Shown: in pieces, positions 3,927 to 63,751 of the stretch
How the letters are laid out: every line of letters starts with the position of its first letter
How positions within the stretch are numbered: the stretch's first letter is position 1
DNA from: Armatimonadota bacterium
GTDB lineage: Bacteria > Armatimonadota > Fimbriimonadia > Fimbriimonadales > GBS-DC
NCBI GenBank assembly: GCA_023511915.1
Contig: JAIMAN010000001.1
Coordinates: 2,877-66,876, forward strand
DNA: 64,000 nt
Direction of reading: 5' to 3'
Position numbers and translations under genes: made by a program
Notes under the pieces: generated by a model
Seen by the model: the letters and a program-made list of their open reading frames with translations, nothing else
The model's database searches: none
Told to the model about the DNA's origin: nothing

Positions 3927-4855
3927 GCGTTTTTGCCTCCTTGAATGGTCTCCACGAACAGGTCTTCGAGGGTGCGTCGGTAGGGCTTGACGCTGATGAT
4001 ATGCCCGCCTGCCGCACGCACGATGTCAATGACGCGATCCACGGTGCCGTTGTCGGGCTGCTCGACAATCAGCCTGCCGTCGTGCAGGCTGACCTTGCCG
4101 CCCAGCTGACGAATCGGCTCCACGGCGTTGTCGGGCACCTTGTCGGCGATGACCTCCACATGCCCGCCTGCCAGCAGCTCCTCGATGCGTCCCAGCTGCA
4201 CCATCACGCCGCGATTGAGAATCGCCACGCGGTCGCACACGCGCTCGACATCCGAAAGCTGGTGCGAGCTGATAAACAGCGTCTTGCCTTGATTGCGCAG
4301 GTCTAAAATCATATCGCGGATATCGATGTGCGCGATGGGGTCTAACCCAGCGGTTGGCTCGTCCAGAATCAGCAGTTGCGGGTCGTTGATGAGGCACTGC
4401 GCCAGTCCGATGCGCTGCTGCATCCCTTTCGAGTAGGTGCGCAGGGGCTGGTCTGCCGCGCGGGACAGCCCGACGCGATCGAGCAACTCGTTCACGCGCT
4501 TGCTGCGCTCTGGCTCCGCGATCCCGAACAGCTTGGCGTAGAAGGTGAGGATTTCGCGCCCGGTCATGTAGTCATAAAAGTAGGGGTTTTCGGGCAGGTA
4601 GCTGATTTTGTAGTGGTTTTTGGGGTCGCCCGCAGGCTGCCCCAGCACATACGCTTCGCCCTCGGTTGGGTAGATAATCCCCAGCAGCACCTTGATCGTG
4701 GTGGTCTTCCCTGCGCCGTTGGGACCCAAAAAGCCGAAAATCTCGCCGCGATGCACCTCCAAGTTGAGGTTCTTCACGGCGTCCACTGGCTGTTTGCTCC
4801 ACAGTCCCGAATAGCGCTTGGTCAAGTTGACCGTTTTGATGGCTATCTCGCTCAT
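3923..4855 (-). CDS. ABC transporter ATP-binding protein (ABC-2 subfamily)
   Basis: The translation contains Walker A GPNGAGKTT, signature YSKGMQQR and Walker B LLILDEPTAGLD. AGGAGG lies 5 nt upstream of the ATG. Confidence 0.9.
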   Translation of the reverse strand: MSEIAIKTVNLTKRYSGLWSKQPVDAVKNLNLEVHRGEIFGFLGPNGAGKTTTIKVLLGIIYPTEGEAYVLGQPAGDPKNHYKISYLPENPYFYDYMTGREILTFYAKLFGIAEPERSKRVNELLDRVGLSRAADQPLRTYSKGMQQRIGLAQCLINDPQLLILDEPTAGLDPIAHIDIRDMILDLRNQGKTLFISSHQLSDVERVCDRVAILNRGVMVQLGRIEELLAGGHVEVIADKVPDNAVEPIRQLGGKVSLHDGRLIVEQPDNGTVDRVIDIVRAAGGHIISVKPYRRTLEDLFVETIQGGKNA

Positions 4856-4965: not shown

Positions 4966-5140
4966 TGTCGGCAGGGGGCACGGGCGTTTTGTTGCCCTCA
5001 TCCGCAGCCCCTCTCCTGCGCAGCGGGAGAGGGGAGCCGCGCTTTGGAGTGCTGAAGCGTTAGCTTCAGCAGGGCGGAAGCTTCGCTTCCGCACTCCACA
5101 AAGCCAACATCCCCCTCGCCCGCGCGTGGACGAGGGGGAC
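4966..5140. repeat. cluster of G/C-rich hairpin repeat modules (CCCCTCTCC hairpin at 5008-5034, family-A unit at 5046-5097, TCCCCCTCG hairpin near 5110-5140)
   Basis: The stems are read directly: cccctctcc/ggagagggg and tccccctcg/cgaggggga. The same modules recur at 47491-47620 and 57966-58372. Confidence 0.8.
5046..5097 (-). repeat. family-A palindromic repeat (three-way-junction fold), copy 1, inverted orientation
   Basis: The reverse complement reads GGAGTGCGGAAGCGAAGCTTCCGCCCTGCTGAAGCTAACGCTTCAGCACTCC. The stems are identical to the copies at 47543 and 58253. Confidence 0.85.
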
Positions 5141-5211
5141 ATCGGGAGCAGGAACCTCACCAACGCCGCGCCAGACCGTTCCCCTTAGGAAGGCTGGACG
5201 CGGGTCGGTCG

Positions 5212-6102
5212 TCAATCCCACTCCTCACAGAAGTTCGGGCGCGGGTAGCACATTAGCAGCATGCGGTTCGGGTTGCCCTCTTTGGGGCGGCTGGGCCAGC
5301 CGAAAAAGCTCTGTCGCTCGTGGTAGACGCCGCCCTGAATGAACCAGCGCGGCATCAGACGCCGATCGACAGTCGTCGGGCGCGCGGTGTAGTGCGCGAC
5401 ATCGCCCATGCGCCGCGCGTCAGGATCCAAGCGTGCATGGAACGCCCGTACATGCCCATCCACGAAACTCGCCTGACCCTTGCCCCGATAGCGCGACTCC
5501 TGCCCCGCAACCACGCGGTCGGGCACGCGCGCGGCTAAGCCATGGCGCGGGTCTACCCCGCTGACGGGCTCGAACCCCGCGCCTGAGCCGTCCGCGCCCA
5601 GCCAACCATCGAACCAGAAGCCCGTGGAGGCGGGGAACGGCAGCCGCGCCAGGCTCACAGGCGGCACGGTCGGGTAGCTCGCCGCGTTCACGGTCAAGCA
5701 CCAGTTGGGCATCAGCGACACTTGCGTCGGTTCATCGGCACAGAGCGGGCAACCGACGCCCCGCACCGTGCGCATCGCAGTCAGGTCAATCGGCTGCGGG
5801 TCGGCAGGGCACAGCGCAACGCGATAGTCGCGCAGGTAGGGCTGCAACACGCCCCACACCGTTCGTAAGCATGTCCCATTCGCGCTCGCCGCGCGGTAGA
5901 ACGCCAACGGGAAACACTCATCGTAGTCCTGCGTGTAAAGCAAGGTCGCCTTGCTGAGTTGACGCAGGTTCGAAGCGCACACGCTCGCGGCGCTGGCTTG
6001 ACGCGCCGTCGTGAACACGGGAAACAGCAACGCCGCCAGCACGGCGATGATCGCAATCACCACCAGCAGTTCCACCAGTGTCAAGCCACTCTGTCGATTC
6101 AT
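5212..6102 (-). CDS. prepilin-type N-terminal cleavage/methylation domain protein, DUF1559-like
   Basis: The N-terminus MNRQSG/LTLVELLVVIAIIAVLAALLFPVF is a type IV pilin-like leader plus hydrophobic helix. FVDGHV occurs near the C-terminus. I chose the ATG at 6102 because GGGGG sits 7 nt upstream; the track start at 6120 is a GTG. Confidence 0.75.
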   Translation of the reverse strand: MNRQSGLTLVELLVVIAIIAVLAALLFPVFTTARQASAASVCASNLRQLSKATLLYTQDYDECFPLAFYRAASANGTCLRTVWGVLQPYLRDYRVALCPADPQPIDLTAMRTVRGVGCPLCADEPTQVSLMPNWCLTVNAASYPTVPPVSLARLPFPASTGFWFDGWLGADGSGAGFEPVSGVDPRHGLAARVPDRVVAGQESRYRGKGQASFVDGHVRAFHARLDPDARRMGDVAHYTARPTTVDRRLMPRWFIQGGVYHERQSFFGWPSRPKEGNPNRMLLMCYPRPNFCEEWD

Positions 6103-18469: not shown

Positions 18470-21400
18470 CTATTGCTTGCGCTCGCGTTTGGTTTTCGGG
18501 GAAGCGCGATCGCCGTCGGTGGGGTCTGGCGCGTCAGCCTCCCCGGCTGCTGGACGCAGGGTAATCTCCAAGGCGGGCGCGTCGCCGTCGGTGGGGTCTG
18601 GCGCGTCCGCCTCACCTGCTGCGGGGCGCAGGGTAAGTTCGAGGGCAGGCGCGTCGGGCGAGGAGTCGGCAAGGCGCAGGGTGCTTTCCGTGTTGGGCGC
18701 GCCGCCGTCGGTTGCCTGCGCCTCGCCGTCGTCCGCCGCCAGCTCCTCTTCGAAGAGCGTGCCGAGCGTCGGCTCGCGCGTTTCGACGACCGCCGCCGCC
18801 TCGTCGGCGCGTGCGCCCCACTCGAACTTTGGCTCGAAGCGCGGCTTCACATACCCTGTACCCGCAGGAATCAGCCGCCCGATAATCACATTCTCCTTCA
18901 AGCCGACCAGTTCGTCCACCTTGCCGCGCACCGCCGCCTCCGTGAGCGCTTTGACCGTGCGCTGGAACGACGCCGCCGACAGGAACGACTCGGTCTGCTG
19001 CGCCGCCTCCGAGACGCCCAGCAGCACCCACTCTGCAGTCGCGGGTCGCCCGCCCTCGGCGATGACCTTGCGGTTGGCGTCCTCGAACACGAAGCGGTCG
19101 ACGGTTTGTCCAGGCAGGAAGTAGGCGTCGCCGGGGTCGATCACGCGCCGCTTGCGCAGCATCTGGCGGATGATGACCTCCAGGTGCTTGTCGTCGATGT
19201 CGACGCCCTGCGCCTTGTAGACCGCCTGAATCTCGCGGATGAGGTACTCCTGCACGCCGCGCACCCCGCGCAGGCGCAGCAGCTCGTGCGGGTTCAGCGG
19301 TCCGGGCGTGAGGCGGTCGCCCGCCAGCACTGTGTCGCCCTTGACCACCTCCAGCGAGCCTTGCGGCGGCACCAGCACCGCGTCCAGCACTGTGACCTCT
19401 TGGACGCCTGCTTCGTGCAGGCGCGTCAGGTGCGCGGCGCGAATCTCGTCCATCTCGCTGACGATGGGGTTGCCCCGCGCGTCTTCGATGGTCTGCAGGC
19501 TCATCTTGCCCACCAGCAGGTCGCCGACGGGCAGCGTGGCTTTGATGACCACCCAGCGCCCGACGGAGCGCACGACATCCACCACCTCGCCTGCGTAGTC
19601 GACAGTGATGGCTTCGCCTTTGGGCTTGCGCGCCTCGAACAGCTCCTCTACGCGGTTGATGCCCGAGTTGGGCGGCTCTTGCAGTTTGTTCAGTCGGCGC
19701 AGCGAGTCGCGCGTGCGCTTTTCGATCTTGTCCTCGCCGTCGCTGGGTTCGTCGGTCGCAAGCACGGGCACGGGCTTGCCCAACTGGTTCGCCGCGACTT
19801 TGAGCAGCACATGCTTCTGGTCTTTGCTGAGGTCGAGGGTTTGCGCCTCTTCTTCATCTTTTTTGGATTCACTTCGCACTGCGACAGGATATTCCACGAT
19901 GGAACATTTTTCGCGTTGTAGATGGGCGATTACCTTCTGTCGTAAATTGTGGAGTTCTTTGAGTTTCTTGATATCAATTTTGTCTCCTTTTCTCAGTAGG
20001 ACTTTCTTGTCGCCGATCGGAGACACAAGTTCCTTGTCCTTTTCATACACCGAGCCAACTCCCTGCGCAATGATCTCACGCACATCAGAGATAAACGGCA
20101 CAAACTCGCGCGTCTTTTGGTCATCCTTTATTTTGTCACGGTAGATTTGAGGAGTATTCCAACTGAAGCCAGATGCCGTAAACGACACTCGCAGTTCATT
20201 TATGGCGCTATGCAGTCTTTGCTCGATCAACAACAGATCTTCATCACTGGGCAAGAGAATTTGCTTACCAGTAAATGGATGCCTTACATCCTCGCGAAAT
20301 GCTTTGCCTAATTCACAACTCTCTACTTTACGACACATCCTCACAAACTCTGCTACCCTTCTGGCAAGTTCTTCTATCTCTTTGGCAGATCTTTCGTCGA
20401 TAGCCCTACCAGCGGTAGCCAACACTTTCTTAGTGTGTGGATCAAATAGAGTTCGCTCTGGTACGCGTCCTTTGAGCTGATCGACTTTAGCGTCCACTGG
20501 TTCGAAACTTCGCTCAACTGCTTTCATCTTGAAAGACGCAATTACCTGTCCGCTTCCCGCTACACCACTTGCGTGGAACACACGCATGGTCAGCTGCGTG
20601 CCGGGTTCGCCAATCGACTCGGCGGCGATGATGCCGACCGCTGTGCCCAGCTCCACGGGGCGCAGCGTGCCCATATCCAGTCCGTAGCACTTGGCGCACA
20701 CGCCTTGGCGCGTGTTGCAGGTCAGCGGCGAGCGGATGGGCACGCCCACGCGGTCATGCTCGACCCACTCGTAGCCCGCTTGGAGCCACATGGTGCGGAT
20801 TTCGTCGCGCCGCGCGTGCAGCCGATCCATCACTTCCTGCGTGAGCATATCGTAGGGTTCCAGCAGCGTTTCGCCGGTGATGGGATCGCGCAGCGGCTCG
20901 TCGTCGGTCGGCGTGAACAGTTCGAACTCGTCTTTGCCCGACAGTTCGCGCAGCGTCTGGGTGAACCGTTCGGTCGCCTGCGCCAGCGCGTCAAGTTCGG
21001 TTGCTACCGCTTCGGGGATGATTTCGTTCTCGGCGACGAGGGGTTCGCCCGTGATGGGGTGGCGCAGGTCGCGTCGGGCAGTGCGTCCGCGAATACGCTG
21101 GAACAGCGTTTCGATGAGGTCGCCCTCGCGCTCGATGCGGCTGACGACGATGCCTTCAGGCGTGCCGCAGTCGTGTTCGCGGATGACCACATCCTGCGCC
21201 ACATCGCACATGCGACGGGTGAGGTAGCCCGCGTTGGCGGTTAGCAGCGCGGTGCTTGCCAGCCCGCGCCGTGCGCCGTAGCCCGACACGAAGTATTCCA
21301 GCGTGGTCAGCCCCTCTTGGAAGTTGTGCTGCACGGGCAACTCCTCGACCAGTCGCTCGCCGCCTGAACGGAAGTCGAACCCGCCCATCATCAAGCCGCG

Positions 21401-46084: not shown

Positions 46085-47395
46085 TCACGCCTCCACCAAC
46101 GCCTGCAACAGCGATTCAAACTCGGGAAAACTGGTCTGCACGCAGGCGACATCGTGAACCACCGTCTCGCCTGAGTGCGCGATTAGCCCCGCAATCGCCA
46201 GCGTCATGGCAATCCGATGGTCGCCGTGGCTGTGAACCTCTGCGCCGTGCAGCGGGGTCGGTCCCTGCACGCGGAAGCCGTCGGGCAGCGGTTCAATCTG
46301 TGCGCCCATCGTGCGCAGTTCGGTCGTGATGGCTTCGATGCGGTCGGATTCCTTGACGCGCAGTTCGGCGGCGTCGCGCAGTTCGGTTTCGCCGTGCGCT
46401 TGGGTCGCCAGCAGGGCGAGGATGGGCGCCTCGTCGATGAGGCTGGGCACAAGCGCGCCGCCGATGCGCATCGCGCCGATGGGCTGCGCCCGCACACGCA
46501 GAGTCGCCGTCGGCTCGCCCGCCTGCTCGCCCACTGCCTGCCACTCCAGATGCACGCCCCCCTGCGCCAACGCCTCCAGTAGCCCCGTGCGCGTCGGGTT
46601 CACCCCAACATGTTCGATCGTCAGGTCAGACCCTGACAGCAGCAGCGCGGCAGCCACCCAGAACGCCGCCGACGAGAAGTCGCCTGGGATGGTCAGCCGC
46701 TGCCCCTCCAGCCGTTGCCCGCCTGCGATGCGCACGCGATGCGCGCCCGCGTCGCTCATCTGCTGCTCCAGCGTCGCGCCGAAGGCGTGCAGCATCCGCT
46801 CGGTATGGTCGCGCGAAAGGCACGGCTCGGCGACCTCCGTGACGCCCGCTGCGTGCAGCCCCGCCAGCAGCAGGCACGACTTGACCTGTGCGCTGGCGAC
46901 GGGCGTAAGGTAGTGAATCCCACGCAACGCGCCCCCGCGGATCGCCAGCGGCAGGCGCGTCGCCCCGTCGCGCCCGTCGATGCGTGCGCCCATGCGCTGC
47001 AGGGGTTCCACCACGCGCCGCATCGGACGCCGCCGCAGCGACTCGTCGCCTGTGAGTACGCTGAAAAACGGCTGCGCTGCCAGCACGCCCGCCATCAGCC
47101 GCGCCGCCGTGCCCGAATTGCCTGCATCGAGCGTATCCGCAGGCTCCTGCAGCGGCTGACCCCCGCGCCCCACAATCCGCCAGTGCGCCGCGCCGACCCG
47201 CTCCGCCGACGCGCCCAACTGCTGCGCCATCCGCAGCGTGCGCAGGCAGTCGTCCGACTCCAGAAAGCCCTCAATCTCCGTCGCGCCGTGCGCCAGCAGC
47301 CCCAGAATCACCGCGCGGTGCGTGATGGACTTGTCGCCCGGCGGACGCCACACGCCCCGCACGCGCCGTGCAGGACGAATCCGCCAACTCTGCAC
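46085..47395 (-). CDS. aroA: 3-phosphoshikimate 1-carboxyvinyltransferase (EPSP synthase)
   Basis: The translation shows PPGDKSITHRAVILG, LDAGNSGTAARL and RVKESDRI. The track start at 47527 translates a repeat element. I propose the GTG at 47395 (VQSWRIRPARRV...), but this start is uncertain. Confidence 0.88.
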   Translation of the reverse strand: MQSWRIRPARRVRGVWRPPGDKSITHRAVILGLLAHGATEIEGFLESDDCLRTLRMAQQLGASAERVGAAHWRIVGRGGQPLQEPADTLDAGNSGTAARLMAGVLAAQPFFSVLTGDESLRRRPMRRVVEPLQRMGARIDGRDGATRLPLAIRGGALRGIHYLTPVASAQVKSCLLLAGLHAAGVTEVAEPCLSRDHTERMLHAFGATLEQQMSDAGAHRVRIAGGQRLEGQRLTIPGDFSSAAFWVAAALLLSGSDLTIEHVGVNPTRTGLLEALAQGGVHLEWQAVGEQAGEPTATLRVRAQPIGAMRIGGALVPSLIDEAPILALLATQAHGETELRDAAELRVKESDRIEAITTELRTMGAQIEPLPDGFRVQGPTPLHGAEVHSHGDHRIAMTLAIAGLIAHSGETVVHDVACVQTSFPEFESLLQALVEA

Positions 47396-47490: not shown

Positions 47491-47620
47491 GTTTGCCCTC
47501 ACCCCCCTTGCCCCCTCTCCCGCACACGGCGAGGGGGACTATGGAGTGCGGAAGCGAAGCTTCCGCCTAATGCTGAAGCTGCGCTTCAGCACTCCAAAGG
47601 GGCTGGGGGTGAGGGCAAAC
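47491..47620. repeat. composite hairpin repeat bracketed by GTTTGCCCTCACCCCC / GGGGGTGAGGGCAAAC arms and containing a family-A unit
   Basis: The inverted arms are read at about 47491-47506 and 47605-47620. The inner hairpin is ccccctc...gaggggg. Confidence 0.75.
47543..47595 (+). repeat. family-A palindromic repeat (three-way-junction fold), copy 2
   Basis: The sequence is GGAGTGCGGAAGCGAAGCTTCCGCCTAATGCTGAAGCTGCGCTTCAGCACTCC. Confidence 0.85.
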
Positions 47621-47649: not shown

Positions 47650-49116
47650 ATGCAAACCTACAGGCTCTACATCGATGGTGAATGGGTCGACACAGGCACG
47701 CGCTACGAAGTGCGCAACCCCGCCAACGGTGAGGTGATTGCCGAATGCGCCGTCGCGGGCGAGGCGGAACTGAACGCCGCCGTAGACGCCGCCGCACGCG
47801 CCTTCCCCGACTGGGCAGCGCGTTCCTACGAAGAGCGCGGCGAACTGCTCCGCGCCGTCGCGCAGGGCATCAAGGCACGCTACGAAGAGTTCGCTCTCGC
47901 CGAAACGCAAGAGACGGGACGCTGCCTGCGCGAAACGATGGCGCACGACATCCCCGCTGCCATCGCCGTGTTCGAATACTTCGCGGGCATCGCACCCGCC
48001 ACACTGGGCGAGACCATCCCCGTTCCAGGCATGTACCTCAACTACACGCGGCGCGAACCCTACGGCGTCGTCGGCGCGATAACCCCGTGGAACTTCCCGC
48101 TGTGGTTGGCAGCCATCAAAATCGCCCCCGCGCTGGCGGTCGGCAACACGATGGTTCTCAAGCCCGCGCCCACTACGCCGATTACCGCGCTGATGCTGGC
48201 GGAAGTAATGCACCAAGCGGGCATCCCCGCAGGCGTATTCAATGTGCTGACCGACCCGACGCCCGCTACGATTGGCGACCTGCTGACCCGCCACCCGAAG
48301 GTGCGCAAGGTCTCCTTCACGGGGTCTACCGCCGTCGGCGTGCGCGTGATGCAAAACGCCGCGACGCACATCGCCCCCGTGTCGCTGGAGTTGGGCGGCA
48401 AGTCGCCGTTTCTGGTGTTCGCCGACGCCGATTTCGATCGCGCCCTCGCCCACGCCCTGCTGGCAAACTACTTCGCGCAAGGGCAGATGTGTACCGCCGC
48501 CACGCGCATCTTCGTCGAGCGACCCCTCTACGAGCGGTTCCGCGATGCATTCGTCGCCCGCGCCCAACGCCTGCAGATTGGCGACCCGTTAGACCCCACC
48601 ACCGAGTTTGCGACCCTGCACAAGCGCGAGCAACTCGAAAAGACCGAGTTCTATGTGCGCGCCGCGCTTGAGGAAGGCGCGAAACTGCTCGCAGGCGGCA
48701 GACGCCTCACCGAGCCGCCCTTCGACAAGGGCTTCTACTTCGCGCCGACCGTGCTGGAGGAGGTGCAGCCCACCATGCGTGTCGCCTGCGACGAGATTTT
48801 CGGACCCGTCGCGATGCTGATGCCGTTCGAAGGCGAGGCAGAGGCGGTGCGCCTTGCCAACAACACCGACTACGGGCTGGCAGCGGGCGTCTGGACGCAG
48901 GACATCGGCAAGGCGTTGCGCGTCGCCCACCAGATTGAGGCGGGCAAGGTCTGGGTCAACTGCTACAACATGATTCCCCCGCAAGCGCCCTACGGCGGCT
49001 ACAAACTCAGCGGCTTCGGACGCGAACTCGGCTTGCACTGCCTGCTCGACCTTTACACGCAGGTCAAAAATGTGCAGGTAGACCTCAGCCCCGACTACTT
49101 CGAGTGGTTTGGGTAG
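47650..49116 (+). CDS. NAD(P)-dependent aldehyde dehydrogenase
   Basis: I trimmed the track ORF to MQTYRLYIDGEWV, which has AAGGAG upstream. The translation shows ITPWNFP, FTGSTAVG, LELGGKSP and EIFGPV. Confidence 0.9.
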   Translation: MQTYRLYIDGEWVDTGTRYEVRNPANGEVIAECAVAGEAELNAAVDAAARAFPDWAARSYEERGELLRAVAQGIKARYEEFALAETQETGRCLRETMAHDIPAAIAVFEYFAGIAPATLGETIPVPGMYLNYTRREPYGVVGAITPWNFPLWLAAIKIAPALAVGNTMVLKPAPTTPITALMLAEVMHQAGIPAGVFNVLTDPTPATIGDLLTRHPKVRKVSFTGSTAVGVRVMQNAATHIAPVSLELGGKSPFLVFADADFDRALAHALLANYFAQGQMCTAATRIFVERPLYERFRDAFVARAQRLQIGDPLDPTTEFATLHKREQLEKTEFYVRAALEEGAKLLAGGRRLTEPPFDKGFYFAPTVLEEVQPTMRVACDEIFGPVAMLMPFEGEAEAVRLANNTDYGLAAGVWTQDIGKALRVAHQIEAGKVWVNCYNMIPPQAPYGGYKLSGFGRELGLHCLLDLYTQVKNVQVDLSPDYFEWFG

Positions 49117-55194: not shown

Positions 55195-57970
55195 AGTTCA
55201 TGTTCGCGTCCAGCGAGCGCGCGCGGTAGCTGAACTGACTATACTGCGGGTCTAAGTTCAGCTGCTCGCGGAAGCGGTAGCTCAGCACGAACGCCCAGTT
55301 GCGCGTGATGCGGTACTGGTAGCCGATGTTGAATGCCGTGTCGCGCGAGGGGAGGTAGCCGCGCAGGGTGGTGCGCTGGAACTCGGCGAACAGGCTCTGG
55401 TTGCTGGCGATGTCGTAGCTCACGCGCGCCGCGAAGCCGACAGGCTCCTGCACAAACTCGCCCTGCCCGCCCTGAAAGCCCTCGCCCAGAAAGCTGCGCG
55501 TCTTCATCGCATAGAAGCTCAGGTTCACCGTCCAGCGGCGCAGCGGTCCGATGTCCACTGCGAGCGTCAAAAACTCGTTGCTGGAGTTGCCTGTCGCGGA
55601 GAGGAACTGCACCTCTTGGCGCGACCAGCTCGCGCTGAGCGCCAGCCAATCGCGCGGCAGGTAGCTAACGCCCACCGAGAGCGACTCCTGCGCGCTGTTG
55701 GTCTGCAAATCGCCCAGCGAGCGGTTCTGGCTCCACTGCAGGTCTATCGAGAGCGCGTCCAGCGGCGTCCACTGCACGGTGAGGTCTTGCCCCTTGCCCC
55801 GCACGCCGAAATAGCTGAACCCGCTGAGGGGCGGCGCGCCCGACGAGAAGCCGTTGCCGTCGAAGCCGACGCCCCACGGGTTCGAGGGGAAGCCCGTGGT
55901 CGGCGGCAGCGGGTTGCCGAACTGCCGCGAGCGCACATCGGTCGGCGCGAGGTTCAGCGACCCCGAATCGCTATCGCGCCAGCGGTAGGTGAGGCTTAGG
56001 CTCGATAGCGGTCGCCACGAGGCGTCCACCGAATAGTCGCGCGACTGGGTGCGCACGCTCCCACTCGGCTGGCGCTGCTGGATGTCGCTTTGCGCCAGCG
56101 AGGCGCGCAGGGTCAGCTGCGCGTTCACCGTCCAGTCCACCTGCGAGCGCAGGCTGCGGATGCGGTAGAACAGGTTCGTACCGCCGCTCAGTGCGCTGAA
56201 GGCGTCCGACTCGGACTGCTCGTAGCCCAGCGAGAAGTTGAGCGCGTCCCAGCGGCGGGCGAGGCTAATCGCGTCGCGCGTCTGCTCGCTGCGGCTGTTC
56301 GGGGCGCGCACTTCGTTCGTGTTGCGGCTGAGCGTGAGCTGGAAGTCGTTCGGCGGGGTGTAGCTGTAGGTGAAGTTCTGGATGCGCGTGTCGGTGAAGC
56401 TCGCGCTGAAGCTGCTGCTGAGTGGGTTCAGCGCGGCGACGCGCAGGTTGCTGAAACTCGCCTGCAGGTTCGATATCGCGCTGAAGCGGTAGCTGAGGTC
56501 GGCTTGGTAGCCGCGCTCGTTGCGGCGGAAGCCGACCGATTCGATGCCGATGAATTCCGCAGGGATGTCACGGTAGGTCGCGTTCAGGGTGAGACGCCCG
56601 AATTCAAAGCGTCCTGTGGCGTTGTGCGCAATCGCCTCCAGTCGGCTGCCCTGCGCGACGGCGCGGCTCTGCGCCGCGTTCCACACAAGGCTCCCGACGC
56701 GCCCCAGCGGGAGCGTGAAGTCGATGCCCATCACCTCGCGGTCGCCGCCAATCGTCGAGCTGGGGTCAGGGCGCGGGGTGTATTCCACCTGAATGATGAC
56801 CGTCTGGGGCATAAAGCGCGTGAAGTAGAATCGGTAGGGCAGCAGCTCGTCGAAGTAGTAGTCGACGCCTTCCACCTGCGGCGCGCCCGCGACAGTGATA
56901 ATCACAGGGTTCGCCGCGTCGCGCAGGGGCGGGAACTGCAGGTCATACGGCGTGCTGGGCGCGCCAAAACCGTAGAACTGCTCCGTGCGACGGCGTAGCG
57001 CGGTGCGCGCCGTCGTCTGCTGCGAGAGCATCGTGAAGCCCAAGTTGAACCCACCGCCGAGATTACCCTCCCAGCGGAAGCCTTGCAAGCGGCTTGGCGC
57101 AGCGTTGAACGCATAGGTCTCGTAGGTCACCACGATAGTGGAGGTGCGCGGGATAATCATCCCGTCGCGGAAGCGCAGGATGCCCCCGAAGTAGTCGATG
57201 GTGTAGTCGTCGCCGCGCCGTTTTTCGACGCCGTCGACTTGCACGCGCTCGCTGCCGTCCACAATCTGGCTGCCCTGCAGGTAGTAGGGTCCGGGGCTGT
57301 CGTTGCCCGAAATCGTGATGGTGCGTGCAGCGGCTTTGGTCTCGGAGGTGATGTACCGAAAGCGGTTCCCGCCCCAGGTAGCGGTCGCCGACGCGCCTTT
57401 GAGCGTGCGGTTGAACCCCACCAGCGGGTTCGCCCCGCCCAGCGACGCTGTGATGTCGCCCCACTCCAGCGTCAGGTTCGGCGACTCGTAGGTGTAGGTG
57501 ATCCGCGCGTCATACGGGTTGCGAAAGCGGCTGTTCGTCCAGCGCCAGTCGAAGCTCAAAAACCCCAGAAACTTGTTCACGCGGATGGTCAGCTCGGTGT
57601 TGTCCGTGACGCGCTGTCCGCCTTGCCCGAAGTAGTTCTGGTCGCGGAAGGCAGCGAAATCGCCCTCGATGTCGTGCAGGTGGTAGCCGATACTTTTGCG
57701 CCCGCTGATGGTGACCGTGCGTCGGAACTCCTCTTCCAGCGTCTCCCAGCTGCGCAGGGTGCGCAGAATGCTGTCGAGCGTGTCGCGTCGTTGTGGGCGT
57801 GGGCGGGGCGTCTCAGCAGGCTGAGTACGCGGCAGCGCTTCCTGCGGAATCTCGATGCTCGGCACGACGCCTGCAGGGGTGAGGATGGGGGGTGTTTTGA
57901 GTTGCGCCGATGCGGACGCGCTGAGTGCGAGGGCGACGGCGAGGGCGGTTGCCAATTTTGTTGCTCTCAC
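55184..57970 (-). CDS. large outer-membrane beta-barrel protein (putative)
   Basis: The C-terminus ...LDANMNFIF ends in an aromatic residue, as is typical of OMPs, and alternating beta-strand patterns run throughout. I trimmed the 1113 aa track ORF because its first ~185 aa translate repeats. The proposed start is the GTG at 57970 (VRATKLATALAVALALSASASA/Q signal), with the TTG at 57955 as an alternative. Confidence 0.65.
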   Translation of the reverse strand: MRATKLATALAVALALSASASAQLKTPPILTPAGVVPSIEIPQEALPRTQPAETPRPRPQRRDTLDSILRTLRSWETLEEEFRRTVTISGRKSIGYHLHDIEGDFAAFRDQNYFGQGGQRVTDNTELTIRVNKFLGFLSFDWRWTNSRFRNPYDARITYTYESPNLTLEWGDITASLGGANPLVGFNRTLKGASATATWGGNRFRYITSETKAAARTITISGNDSPGPYYLQGSQIVDGSERVQVDGVEKRRGDDYTIDYFGGILRFRDGMIIPRTSTIVVTYETYAFNAAPSRLQGFRWEGNLGGGFNLGFTMLSQQTTARTALRRRTEQFYGFGAPSTPYDLQFPPLRDAANPVIITVAGAPQVEGVDYYFDELLPYRFYFTRFMPQTVIIQVEYTPRPDPSSTIGGDREVMGIDFTLPLGRVGSLVWNAAQSRAVAQGSRLEAIAHNATGRFEFGRLTLNATYRDIPAEFIGIESVGFRRNERGYQADLSYRFSAISNLQASFSNLRVAALNPLSSSFSASFTDTRIQNFTYSYTPPNDFQLTLSRNTNEVRAPNSRSEQTRDAISLARRWDALNFSLGYEQSESDAFSALSGGTNLFYRIRSLRSQVDWTVNAQLTLRASLAQSDIQQRQPSGSVRTQSRDYSVDASWRPLSSLSLTYRWRDSDSGSLNLAPTDVRSRQFGNPLPPTTGFPSNPWGVGFDGNGFSSGAPPLSGFSYFGVRGKGQDLTVQWTPLDALSIDLQWSQNRSLGDLQTNSAQESLSVGVSYLPRDWLALSASWSRQEVQFLSATGNSSNEFLTLAVDIGPLRRWTVNLSFYAMKTRSFLGEGFQGGQGEFVQEPVGFAARVSYDIASNQSLFAEFQRTTLRGYLPSRDTAFNIGYQYRITRNWAFVLSYRFREQLNLDPQYSQFSYRARSLDANMNFIF

Positions 57971-58363
57971 CCCCAGCCCCTCTCCCACAGGGTGGGCGCT
58001 TAAGAGGGTAGGTTTTCTGCGGGCGTGCTTGCTCGCGGCATTTCCGAGCAGGGCATTTCTGCCTCCGTGCGAGCGAGACGCTCGCGCTCCCAGCATGCGC
58101 GACGCTGGGAACGCGGGCGTCCCGCCCGCCATGCCAACCGCGTGAGAAAAAAACCTACCCCTTTGAGCAGGGTGGGCGCGGGGTGTAGGGGCGCACGGCA
58201 GTGCGCCCTCAGCCGTTTTTCCCCTCGTCCGCTTGCAAGGGAGGGGGATTATGGAGTGCGGAAGCGGAGCTTCCGCATGATGCTGAAGCTGCGCTTCAGC
58301 ACTCCAAAGGGTCTGGCGCGCGACTCCCCTCTCCCGCGCAGTGGGAGAGGGGCTGGGGGTGAG
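57966..58363. repeat. MITE-like composite of about 400 bp, bracketed by perfect 21 bp inverted repeats
   Basis: The left arm ctcacccccagcccctctccc at 57966-57986 is the exact reverse complement of gggagaggggctgggggtgag at 58343-58363. The interior holds further nested inverted and direct repeats, including the family-A unit. Confidence 0.75.
58253..58305 (+). repeat. family-A palindromic repeat (three-way-junction fold), copy 3
   Basis: The sequence is GGAGTGCGGAAGCGGAGCTTCCGCATGATGCTGAAGCTGCGCTTCAGCACTCC. Confidence 0.85.
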
Positions 58364-58402
58364 GGCAAAAAAGCGTGCGTTCGCGAGCGATGTGCCCTTG
58401 TC

Positions 58403-58476
58403 CCCCCTCCTAACCTCCCCCGTCAACGGGGGACGAACACCCCCCTCCCCGCGTGCGGGGAGGGTTGGGGTGGGGG
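58403..58476 (+). repeat. family-B repeat copy (CCCCCTCCT, TCCCCCG hairpin, CCCTCCCCGC hairpin, GGTTGGGGTGGGGG)
   Basis: It aligns almost base for base with the reverse complement of 63672-63751. Confidence 0.8.
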
Positions 58477-58502
58477 CTGCTCGGTCATAACCCGTGTGCA
58501 GT

Positions 58503-59393
58503 TCACTGGCTGCTTTGCTGCGCATTCGCCGTCTTCGGCTCCTTGCGGGTGAGCGCGGCGGTCAGCTTGACCTCCGAGGTCTCCCGCTCAAAGTCCTTGA
58601 TTTCGGAGCCGTCCTTCTTGATGGGTTCGGTCGTCTGGTTCAGGCTGGCTTGCATCGTCATGCGCTGCACCAGCCCGTTGTCGGGGTGATACCACATGGT
58701 CATCGTGCCCTTCATCAGCCCTTTGGTGACGCGCGCGGCGGCTTCTTTGTCGGTGGTCGGCTGGTAGAAGGCGTCTTGGTACGACTCGATGGTCTGCTCG
58801 AAGGTCTGGGTGATTTTGTGCAGTTTGACGCCGTTGTAGTCCTCCATGCCTTCGTAGCGGGCGGTCATGGGGATTTGGAGCGCGCCGATGACGCGCACGA
58901 AATTCCAGCTCATGCCGTTGGTGAGCGGCTTATCAGGCAGCTCGGTCGGAATCAGCAGCGTCGCCAAGTTGCGGGGGTCAAAGCCTGGCAGCTGGAAGCC
59001 CATCAGCCCGCCGCCGCCCTGCAGCCCCGACAGCTTGCCGTTGGGCGCGACGGTCGCCGTCGAGTCGGGGATCACATTCCGCGCCATGTCCAGCCCGACG
59101 GGGAACGGCTGCCCGTTGAACTCCGCCTCGAACGCCTCCAGTCCCGTCTTGACGGTCGCCTTGCCGCCGTCCTCGACCTTGTCCACTTCCATAAACACGG
59201 TCATCATCATCTTCAGCGTGCCTGCCATGCCCGCTGCGCCCGGAATGGGCAGGTTGCCGTTCAGTTCCACAGTCGCATCGAACAGTTCCCGCTGCTTCTC
59301 GGTGAACTTGAACTGCAGCGTGCTGGACGCCTCTTGCGCCCAGAGTGCGTTAACCAACGCGCTTACCGCCAATAGACTCGCGAGTCGTCTCAT
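58503..59393 (-). CDS. hypothetical secreted protein
   Basis: The signal peptide is MRRLASLLAVSALVNALWAQEAS. AGGAGG lies 6 nt upstream of the ATG at 59393. I do not recognise a family. Confidence 0.6.
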   Translation of the reverse strand: MRRLASLLAVSALVNALWAQEASSTLQFKFTEKQRELFDATVELNGNLPIPGAAGMAGTLKMMMTVFMEVDKVEDGGKATVKTGLEAFEAEFNGQPFPVGLDMARNVIPDSTATVAPNGKLSGLQGGGGLMGFQLPGFDPRNLATLLIPTELPDKPLTNGMSWNFVRVIGALQIPMTARYEGMEDYNGVKLHKITQTFEQTIESYQDAFYQPTTDKEAAARVTKGLMKGTMTMWYHPDNGLVQRMTMQASLNQTTEPIKKDGSEIKDFERETSEVKLTAALTRKEPKTANAQQSSQ

Positions 59394-61675: not shown

Positions 61676-62533
61676 TTAGGCGTAGTCCGAACGGAACATC
61701 CCCCCGATGAACCAGCCCAGAAACATCGCAAGCAGCGGCAGGCTCCCGAAAAAGGCGATGCCCACCGACAGCCAATCCGCAAGGTCCACATAGTCCACCA
61801 GCATCAGCACTAGTTGGAACAGGATACGGAAACCCACATAGATCGCCATCACGCCCAGCAGCGACCAGTCGATGTCGGCGCGTGTAATCGCCCAGACGAC
61901 CAGCATGCCTAACCCGTAGAGTACAAACGCGAACAGCGGATTGCAGCACAGGAAGTTGAGAAACAGCACAATCCCCAAGTCGCGGAACAGCTCCACATCG
62001 GTATCCAGTTTGTTCACCAGATGGGAGACGGGCAGCCACGCGCCGACGAGGAAGAAGAACAGCAGGTTCGACCACGCTGCCCATTCGGGTTTCCAGCCCA
62101 GCACCAGCACATTCAGCGCCGCTAACGGCAGCGCGACGCCGAAAAAGCGTTCCAGTTTGGCGGTGAAGGTGTAGCCTTCGACGACCTCACTGATGAAGCG
62201 GATGGAGTCGGCGGGCTGTTGCTGCACGGCGGCTTGTCCTGCGGGGCGCGAGTAGTCGTACAGCGGGGCGGGCTGAGGCGTCGGGATGGCTTGCGTCGGC
62301 TGGCTACTGGGCTGAGGCGTCGGGATGGCTTGCGTCGGCTGGCTGCTGGGCGCTACGGGCGTTGCCTGAGTCGGGTCGCTCCCGCTGGGCGCGCCAACGG
62401 GCGGGCTTGCCGTAGGGTTCGGCGGCAGCGTGCGCGCCACAGCGCCCGTCGCCCGATCACGCCGACACCACTCGCACACCTGCGGATGCGCGCTCTCCTG
62501 ACCGCACCAGCGACAGCGAATCACCGCAGCCAC
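61676..62533 (-). CDS. zinc-ribbon / Pro-rich linker / polytopic membrane protein (hypothetical)
   Basis: The N-terminus is CRWCGQESAHPQVCEWCRRD (CxxC-N10-CxxC). A Pro/Thr/Gln-rich linker with a tandem repeat follows, then 4-5 TM helices. Confidence 0.6.
   Translation of the reverse strand: MAAVIRCRWCGQESAHPQVCEWCRRDRATGAVARTLPPNPTASPPVGAPSGSDPTQATPVAPSSQPTQAIPTPQPSSQPTQAIPTPQPAPLYDYSRPAGQAAVQQQPADSIRFISEVVEGYTFTAKLERFFGVALPLAALNVLVLGWKPEWAAWSNLLFFFLVGAWLPVSHLVNKLDTDVELFRDLGIVLFLNFLCCNPLFAFVLYGLGMLVVWAITRADIDWSLLGVMAIYVGFRILFQLVLMLVDYVDLADWLSVGIAFFGSLPLLAMFLGWFIGGMFRSDYA
62271..62348 (-). repeat. 2 x 39 bp tandem repeat (encodes SSQPTQAIPTPQP twice)
   Basis: The units at 62271-62309 and 62310-62348 differ at one base. 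Confidence 0.9.
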
Positions 62534-63645: not shown

Positions 63646-63671
63646 ATGTCTTTGCAGTGAGATTAAGCATA

Positions 63672-63751
63672 GCCCCTACCCCAACCCTCCCCGCGGGCGG
63701 GGAGGGAGTGGCGGTTCCTCCCCCGTCCACGGGGGAACCTGAAGGAGGGGG
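63672..63751 (-). repeat. family-B repeat copy (inverted relative to 58403-58476)
   Basis: The sequence is gcccctaccccaaccctccccgcgggcggggagggagtggcggttcctcccccgtccacgggggaacctgaaggaggggg. Confidence 0.8.

Follow-up and report, generated by a model that had tools for sequence, protein, structure and literature searches.

GGAGT-tagged hairpin doublets in an Armatimonadota genome: probable inverted REP pairs of a widespread RAYT family

Three hairpin units between genes and the composites around them

The window, that is, the whole 64,000-nucleotide stretch of Armatimonadota DNA analyzed here, has a G+C content of 60-69% and contains three copies of a 52-53 nt hairpin unit, one of them inverted. 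They were found, on re-reading the sequence, where a sequence-only reading had placed them. The units, their halves, and the larger composites that contain them are listed below; the doublet rows rest on the two-REP anatomy, on folding, and on a scan for the tag and stem.

4987-5139, minus strand: composite 1 (inverted), with a family B arm and hairpin at 4987-5042, the candidate REP doublet, and a C hairpin at 5111-5139
5046-5097, minus strand: candidate REP doublet, copy 1 (inverted); T-variant REP at 5046-5070 (plus), G-variant REP at 5074-5097 (minus), spacer AGG on the plus strand, which is CCT in unit orientation
47492-47619, plus strand: composite 2, 128 nt, an outer inverted repeat TTTGCCCTCACCCCC / GGGGGTGAGGGCAAA around a C hairpin (47511-47537) and the candidate REP doublet
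47543-47595, plus strand: candidate REP doublet, copy 2; G-variant REP at 47543-47566 (plus), T-variant REP at 47572-47595 (minus), 5-nt spacer CTAAT
58205-58372, plus strand: composite 3, with an outer arm GCCCTCAGCC, a C hairpin at 58221-58247, the candidate REP doublet, a B hairpin at 58326-58352, and then the outer arm GGGGGTGAGGGC
58253-58305, plus strand: candidate REP doublet, copy 3; G-variant REP at 58253-58276 (plus), T-variant REP at 58282-58305 (minus), spacer ATGAT

All three copies read GGAGT-GCGGAAGC-loop-GCTTCCGC-linker-GCTGAAGC-loop-GCTTCAGC-ACTCC, as had been described. An alignment of the three confirmed that they vary only in the loops and the linker (loop 1, GAA or GGA; linker, CTAAT, ATGAT, or CCT; loop 2, TGC or TAAC), the tag and stem bases being identical across copies. 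Each unit contains two inverted modules of 24-25 nt, GGAGT followed by GC[G/T]GAAGC-loop-GCTTC[C/A]GC, whose tags point outward and whose tails face each other with 3-5 nt between them. Every half-unit has a perfect 8-bp stem (GCGGAAGC or GCTGAAGC), a loop of 3-4 nt, and the 5' tag GGAGT, and the unit as a whole is nearly its own reverse complement. The hairpin pattern gave five matches in the window, compared with 0.19 expected from shuffles. A looser scan of the 64 kb, tolerating one mismatch in the tag and one in the stem, recovered six half-units, which are the three doublets, and no other match. The copies lie 10-42 kb apart without regular spacing, so a CRISPR array was rejected.

Gene calls and Pfam matches put all three copies (all six REPs) between genes, in agreement with the earlier placement; two of the sites lie between co-directional genes and one in a divergent promoter region. 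Copy 1 lies between two minus-strand genes: a prepilin-type (N_methyl) gene with its stop at 5212 and an ABC ATPase gene that starts at 4855. Copy 2 separates two divergent genes: aroA, on the minus strand with a GTG start at 47395, and an aldehyde dehydrogenase gene that begins with ATG at 47650. Copy 3 has on one side a minus-strand gene that ends at 58503 and on the other a gene for a large secreted protein, whose start near 57970 was set by third-position G+C and the signal peptide. Between composite 3 and that start, at 58154-58171 on the minus strand, there is a terminator-like hairpin followed by seven T, which would make composite 3 part of the 3' untranslated region of the minus-strand gene upstream. 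Translation through the units had been said to create false extensions on three ORFs. This holds for the aldehyde dehydrogenase ORF (47455..) and for the 1113-aa ORF (..58525); the spurious extension of aroA stops at 47527 and covers the adjacent hairpin, not the unit.

The units are embedded in larger composites, as had been noticed, and these composites are homologous to one another with the same order of modules: C hairpin, unit, and B hairpin or arm. TAT or TGT separates the C hairpin from the unit, and AAAG stands between the unit and the B-family element, whether hairpin or arm. Copies 2 and 3 have all of these modules within an outer inverted repeat (GCCCTCACCCCC / GGGGGTGAGGGC), and the outer inverted repeats of the composites are 12-15 bp long. 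The predicted fold of composite 2 is a nested multi-branch structure with z = -10.4, and that of composite 3 is similar. The C hairpin (CCCCCTCGYCC..GGCGAGGGGGA) lies just 5' of all three doublets in the same relative orientation. Repeat family B is a long hairpin (GCCCTCACCCCCAGCCCCTCTCCC..GGGAGAGGGGCTGGGGGTGAGGGC) found at 4987-5042, at 47492-47506 with 47605-47619, at 57957-57996, and at 58318-58372; it occurs alone (e.g. 57957-57996), beside a REP doublet, or split with its arms enclosing other hairpins. It was also seen in the related KatS3mg018 genome (locus L089), and no gene associated with it was identified. The window holds a further hairpin-type repeat family, an inverted pair of 36 nt at 58443-58478 and 63671-63706 that is 92% complementary (CCCTCCCCGCGTGCGGGGAGGGTTGGGGTGGGGGCT). 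There are also two tandem duplications, one at 18510-18653 (72 nt x 2, 86% identical) within a 1785-aa minus-strand ORF and one at 62270-62347 (39 nt x 2, 97% identical).

The window comes from a Fimbriimonadales bacterium (Armatimonadota), and close relatives were available for comparison of these sites. An exact-protein look-up of its aldehyde dehydrogenase gave no record. The P-type ATPase of the window is 93-94% identical to those of KatS3mg018 (Fimbriimonadales) and of two JGI contigs, and one related contig has 92% nucleotide identity to the window over 5 kb. Two contigs with a 93% identical aldehyde dehydrogenase keep the divergent aroA/aldehyde dehydrogenase arrangement of the copy 2 site, with a spacer of 84 nt compared with 254 nt in the window, and the whole 128-nt composite is absent from them. 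This empty site records a gain or loss of the composite between close relatives, and what is missing there is the composite in full rather than the doublet by itself. No target-site duplication was visible at composite 2, where the flanks have diverged between relatives. At the copy 1 site, synteny with three close relatives (L196, L197, and L198) ends exactly at the stop of the N_methyl gene (window 5210-5214). Composite 1 begins there, so that a rearrangement breakpoint coincides with the repeat cluster.

Fold and covariation of the doublets

The unit had been described as a three-way junction, with two 8-bp hairpins enclosed by a closing stem. The two hairpins stand, with strong covariation behind them, and the closing stem does not stand as a helix, since it shows no covariation. 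The minimum-energy fold (ViennaRNA) of all three copies, on both strands and with either RNA or DNA parameters, was one long imperfect hairpin, and the junction fold of the window copies was 0.9-7.4 kcal/mol worse than this hairpin under RNA parameters. The long hairpin is predicted because the two halves of the unit are symmetric, being almost the same palindrome.

We evaluated covariation in 43 distinct doublets that were picked by their two tags alone. RNAalifold predicted two local hairpins, with compensatory changes in 12 of the 14 predicted pairs. When the closing stem and the two hairpins were scored together, the structure was 95.4% paired and 96 cells had changed on both sides; the covariation score of 0.328 compared with 0.097 in shuffles, was reached by none of 500 shuffles, and compared with 0.03-0.06 in slid controls. 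The long-hairpin alternative was 84% paired in the same doublets and scored 0.122. We rejected it as a family-wide conserved fold, its variable positions being unpaired in 16-23 of the 43 doublets.

The 5-bp closing stem was invariant save for its fourth position, where 11 doublets depart from the usual G-C pair and 10 of these are unpaired. A stem that lacks covariation and is broken when it varies is better read as two inverted copies of a sequence tag than as a selected helix. The tag behaves like a sequence read by a protein, and the junction would be a by-product. Two traits of known repeats were also found in the units: each half is a stable stem-loop palindrome of 24-25 nt with its tag (about 20-40 nt being usual for a REP), and each unit has two inverted REPs separated by a short spacer and predicted, in all three copies, to form a single long hairpin, as in a REPIN.

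The tagged hairpins and a RAYT protein in other genomes

We scanned 185,579 species genomes for GGAGTGCNGAAGC-N(2-6)-GCTTCNGC and found at least 115 loci. By our own arithmetic, about 22 matches to this 19-base pattern are expected by chance in 596 Gb, so the locus count alone proves little and the argument rests on the RAYT association described below and on multiple copies per genome. Several MAGs among the matches listed carry many copies. The phyla among these matches include Armatimonadota, Chloroflexota, Acidobacteriota, Planctomycetota, Verrucomicrobiota, Lentisphaerota, Ignavibacteria, Calditrichota, Hydrogenedentota, Nitrospirota, and others, and the complete Fimbriimonadales genome KatS3mg018, also among them, carries full doublets. 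In the other phyla listed, the second hairpin differs in sequence and is still a hairpin, the end of the unit is often still GCACTCC, and single REPs are often followed by a T-run. At four of the five KatS3mg018 loci among the matches listed, the doublet has different flanks and is without the B or C modules, which argues that the doublet is a module independent of those hairpins.

Copy number in the lineage of the window is probably modest. The related 3-Mb genome AP024673.1 has at least five loci, and about 200 kb of relatives, obtained by protein and not by motif, held one collapsed copy only. In the collapsed forms a single palindrome bears both tags (GGAGTGCKGAAGC-loop-GCTTCMGCACTCC), which looks like a doublet that has lost its inner arms (L007:585-613, L038:1491-1519, L074:128-157, L082:4984-5012, L089:6639-6667, and L196:19443-19472). 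The one in L089 has a left arm of the G variant and a right arm of the T variant. Tandem composites of 130-131 nt that include a tagged hairpin occur in a Chthonomonadia MAG (L018:5329-5482) and in an unclassified MAG (L108), the latter with three minus-strand matches 131 nt apart.

All-versus-all clustering of the ORFs of at least 90 codons from the at least 115 motif loci, performed without a prior hypothesis, placed five Y1_Tnp (PF01797) ORFs among the widest-spread clusters. These are 187-234 aa from stop to stop, or about 176-185 aa when trimmed to their likely starts, and the PF01797 matches of cluster members ranged from weak to significant. Four of the five adjoin the motif (within about 100 nt), in Chthonomonadia, Victivallis, Acidiferrales, and Nitrospirales MAGs from four phyla, and have arrays of GGAGTGC-tagged hairpins on both sides. 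In an alignment of four close members, the HUH motif (NHYHL) and the tyrosine motif (YVxxNPVxHG; Y-V-x-x-N-x-V-x-H-G) were invariant. All four scored above the threshold of the NCBIfam equivalog NF047646, 'REP-associated tyrosine transposase' (104.6 bits, cut-off 80), and only one matched NF033573 (IS200), weakly. The sole PDB match was 4ER8, the E. coli TnpA-REP (E = 2e-9). The protein, of about 183 aa, has more than 7000 homologues, some of them named REP-associated tyrosine transposase by NCBI, JGI, or UniRef. By these profile and motif matches, the clustered protein, which comes from related loci rather than from the window, is classed as a RAYT distinct from IS200 TnpA.

The association was also evaluated in reverse. 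A metagenome scan with the protein profile alone gave 80 loci, and a GGA.TGC tag with an 8-bp hairpin (at most one mismatch) lay within 300 nt of the gene in 77 of them, on both sides in 64. The density of tagged hairpins was 6.4 per kb near the RAYT gene and 0.23 per kb further off. In a count made without regard to the tag, GGA.T stood at one foot of 222 of the 359 perfect 8-bp hairpins in RAYT flanks (GGAGT in 159), with A/T-rich sequence at the other foot and 114 distinct stem arms. The usual RAYT flank has the architecture of the window units, GGAGTGC-hairpin-spacer-hairpin-GCACTCC, the spacer sometimes holding a third hairpin.

The Chthonomonadia RAYT is flanked by GGAGTGCGGAAGC..GCTTCCGC, whose tag and stem are identical to the left half of the window unit. 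Among the RAYTs most similar to the Armatimonadota enzyme, a clade at 70-100% identity, the stem is GCGGAAG. in the 5' REP and GCTGAAGC in the 3' REP; as sequences, these are the same two variants that are joined in the window doublet. The 3' REP of this clade (GGACTGCTGAAGC..) overlaps the end of the gene and includes its stop codon (..GAC TGC TGA); the tag is thus read as Asp-Cys, and the TGA stop begins with the T of the T-variant stem. The overlap lies at L210:4543-4566 and L214:4543-4566 and was also seen in L211-L213, L215, and L216. The RAYT gene of L210-L213 has an N6_N4 DNA methylase gene on one side and a gene for a ResIII helicase on the other; in L214 and L215 ResIII is downstream and the upstream gene is without a Pfam match. 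We found no RAYT gene in the window, nor, the Chthonomonadia locus excepted, in about 400 kb of Armatimonadota sequence. RAYT genes are usually single-copy, and this absence is therefore uninformative.

Interpretation and comparison with known systems

We conclude, at a probability of roughly 85%, that each unit is an inverted REP pair (a REPIN- or BIME-like doublet) and that its halves are cognate repeats of a widespread family of RAYT proteins (HUH/Y1, NF047646). Counted against this reading are the noncanonical tag, the modest copy number, the lack of a RAYT gene in the window and in about 400 kb of Armatimonadota sequence outside the Chthonomonadia locus, and the empty site, at which the polymorphic unit is the composite as a whole. 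Two guesses of the sequence-only reading, a REP/BIME-like element and a RAYT recognition structure, are supported by this comparison of sequences: a RAYT-type Y1 transposase has such tagged hairpins beside it in 77 of 80 loci and scores above the RAYT equivalog cut-off. Its remark that it recognized no described family also agrees with our searches, which gave neither a literature match for the GGAGT REP sequence nor an Rfam match. Full-text searches of the literature for this sequence found no relevant paper, and GGAGTGC is absent from the text and supplements of the main REP survey (PMC3733652).

The closest described systems are the REP/BIME elements and REPINs with RAYT (TnpA-REP) of E. 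coli, Pseudomonas, and Stenotrophomonas (Nunvar 2010, PMC2817692; Bertels & Rainey 2011, PMC3116915; Messing 2012, PMC3479197; Di Nocera 2013, PMC3733652). Like these, the window repeat is a short, G+C-rich, extragenic hairpin with a conserved tag at its 5' foot, present in the window as three doublets in 64 kb, and, as described for REP dimers, it is arranged in inverted pairs that may form separate hairpins or one long stem-loop (PMC3733652). In other genomes such repeats lie beside a single HUH/Y1 transposase gene, and the doublets are heterodimers of two stem variants, like the Y and Z REPs of BIMEs. Spacers as short as 1-2 bp have already been described for the REP dimers of Opitutus terrae. 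The family differs from described REPs in its tag, which is GGAG(T) and not GTAG, GTRG, or GTGG, and does not match the literal GTAG consensus (PMC3733652); tag variants of the GTGG type are already accepted in the REP literature. It also differs in range, its tag and hairpin geometry (8 bp starting with GC, usually with AGC/GCT at the top) being common to MAGs of at least 10 phyla; most described families are confined to one species or genus. Unlike that of classical REP families, the copy number in the lineage of the window is apparently low, and low copy number is also reported for RAYTs that belong to neither of the classical groups 2 and 3 (PMC5581495).

Two other kinds of element offer partial parallels. 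The ends of IS200/IS605 elements (IS608 and ISDra2 TnpA) provide an analogy in an HUH/Y1 enzyme that acts on single-stranded DNA with subterminal imperfect hairpins, and the protein of the RAYT loci belongs to the Y1_Tnp fold family (PF01797). Unlike the IS200/IS605 enzymes, that protein scores as a RAYT (NF047646 in four of four members, NF033573 weakly in one of four), and no PDB match to IS608 or ISDra2 TnpA was found at E < 0.01; the repeats are, moreover, dispersed without the gene, and there is no TnpB. The MITEs (Correia/NEMIS, ERIC, and RUP) are likewise small, non-autonomous, intergenic repeats with inverted termini, and the 128-170 nt composites resemble them in size and in their outer inverted repeats. 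The doublet differs from MITEs in lacking terminal repeats of the DDE type and a target duplication, and in its link to a tyrosine HUH enzyme.

By inference from E. coli TnpA-REP (PMC3479197) and IS200/IS605, each REP would fold into a hairpin on single-stranded DNA, e.g. on the lagging-strand template, and the RAYT would recognize the hairpin with its tag and cut and rejoin the DNA beside the REP. The doublets would be copied or moved in trans as non-autonomous elements; REPINs have been described as non-autonomous doublets disseminated in trans (PMC3116915). In such a mechanism the tag would be conserved because it is read by the protein, and the stems would covary because only their pairing is needed. 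With two nearly identical palindromic halves, the doublet can form either a pair of hairpins or a single long one. The doublets of the window are probably passive cargo of intergenic DNA.

An alternative already raised from the sequence alone is that the unit is a structured non-coding RNA (a small RNA or a cis-regulatory element) that folds as a three-way junction. Its predicted folding is very stable (z = -6 to -8) and its two hairpins covary across many genomes, but both strands, the unit being nearly its own reverse complement, fold equally well, and the stem that would close the junction lacks covariation and breaks when it varies. Rfam gave no match at the gathering threshold for the whole window, and permissive E-values for the unit and eight loci returned only sub-threshold matches to generic (miRNA) hairpins. 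The copies occur in both orientations relative to the flanking transcription units, with one between divergent genes, and the element is multi-copy, lies beside unrelated genes, and flanks a transposase. We consider an RNA highly improbable. An element kept for a host function rather than as mobile DNA, such as an intrinsic terminator, an mRNA 3'-end stabilizer, or a protein-binding site, is a further alternative; these roles have been shown for some REP/BIME elements of E. coli, and the reading would be consistent with descent from REPs. Copies 1 and 3 are found downstream of genes that run in the same direction, and a T-run often follows single REPs in other phyla; the window copies, on the other hand, are followed by AAAG or ATAG and not by a T-run, and none was called terminator-like, on which grounds an intrinsic terminator was rejected for them. 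Copy 2 lies in a divergent promoter region, where a terminator is unneeded, and a close relative does without the element at this site. A host role of this kind as the reason for which the window units are kept is, in our estimate, unlikely, although they may have a secondary host role.

The mobile entity could also be the 130-170 nt composite, as a MITE with the terminal inverted repeats TTTGCCCTCACCCCC / GGGGGTGAGGGCAAA and a DDE-type transposase, in which the doublet is a passenger. The shared order of the C hairpin, doublet, and B module inside outer inverted repeats in the three copies, and the empty site from which the composite is missing as a block, speak for such an element. Against this, four of the five KatS3mg018 loci among the matches listed have the doublet in other surroundings, with neither B nor C modules, B hairpins are also found alone (e.g. 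57957-57996), no target-site duplication is visible, and no transposase is linked to the composite. The pattern would be accounted for just as well by separate hairpin elements inserted into one another. A MITE is a possible reading of the composite and leaves the doublet unexplained; that the composite is the mobile entity, with the doublet as its passenger, we regard as unlikely.

A broader proposal can be made only tentatively, and we hold it to be doubtful at present: the window unit may belong to a single, very widely spread RAYT/REP lineage in which the GGAGT tag and the 8-bp geometry are fixed and compensatory changes let the stems diverge. Enzyme and repeat together might then be a domesticated system that serves the host, and not merely a selfish element. 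As part of this proposal, the G and T stem variants of the doublet may trace to the 5' and 3' REPs of the RAYT locus in the closest clade. If the proposal is true, constancy across phyla and single genes flanked by doublets on both sides would fit domestication, and the host role could be, e.g., the structuring or processing of single-stranded DNA.

The kind of element is one already known, REP/REPIN-RAYT by most of its defining features; the sequence family, which spans many phyla, is, as far as our searches went, previously undescribed. The finding leaves the picture of what REPs are unchanged. It accounts for a conspicuous unannotated repeat in Armatimonadota genomes and allows spurious ORF extensions to be removed from their annotation. 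It also gives a REP consensus (GGAGT and an 8-bp hairpin starting with GC, often with a T-rich tail) for a RAYT family so far named by NCBI from homology only. To our knowledge, REP/RAYT biology has been worked out almost entirely in Proteobacteria. The constant tag and covarying stems across phyla provide a data set for the RAYT-REP recognition code and for the question of domestication.
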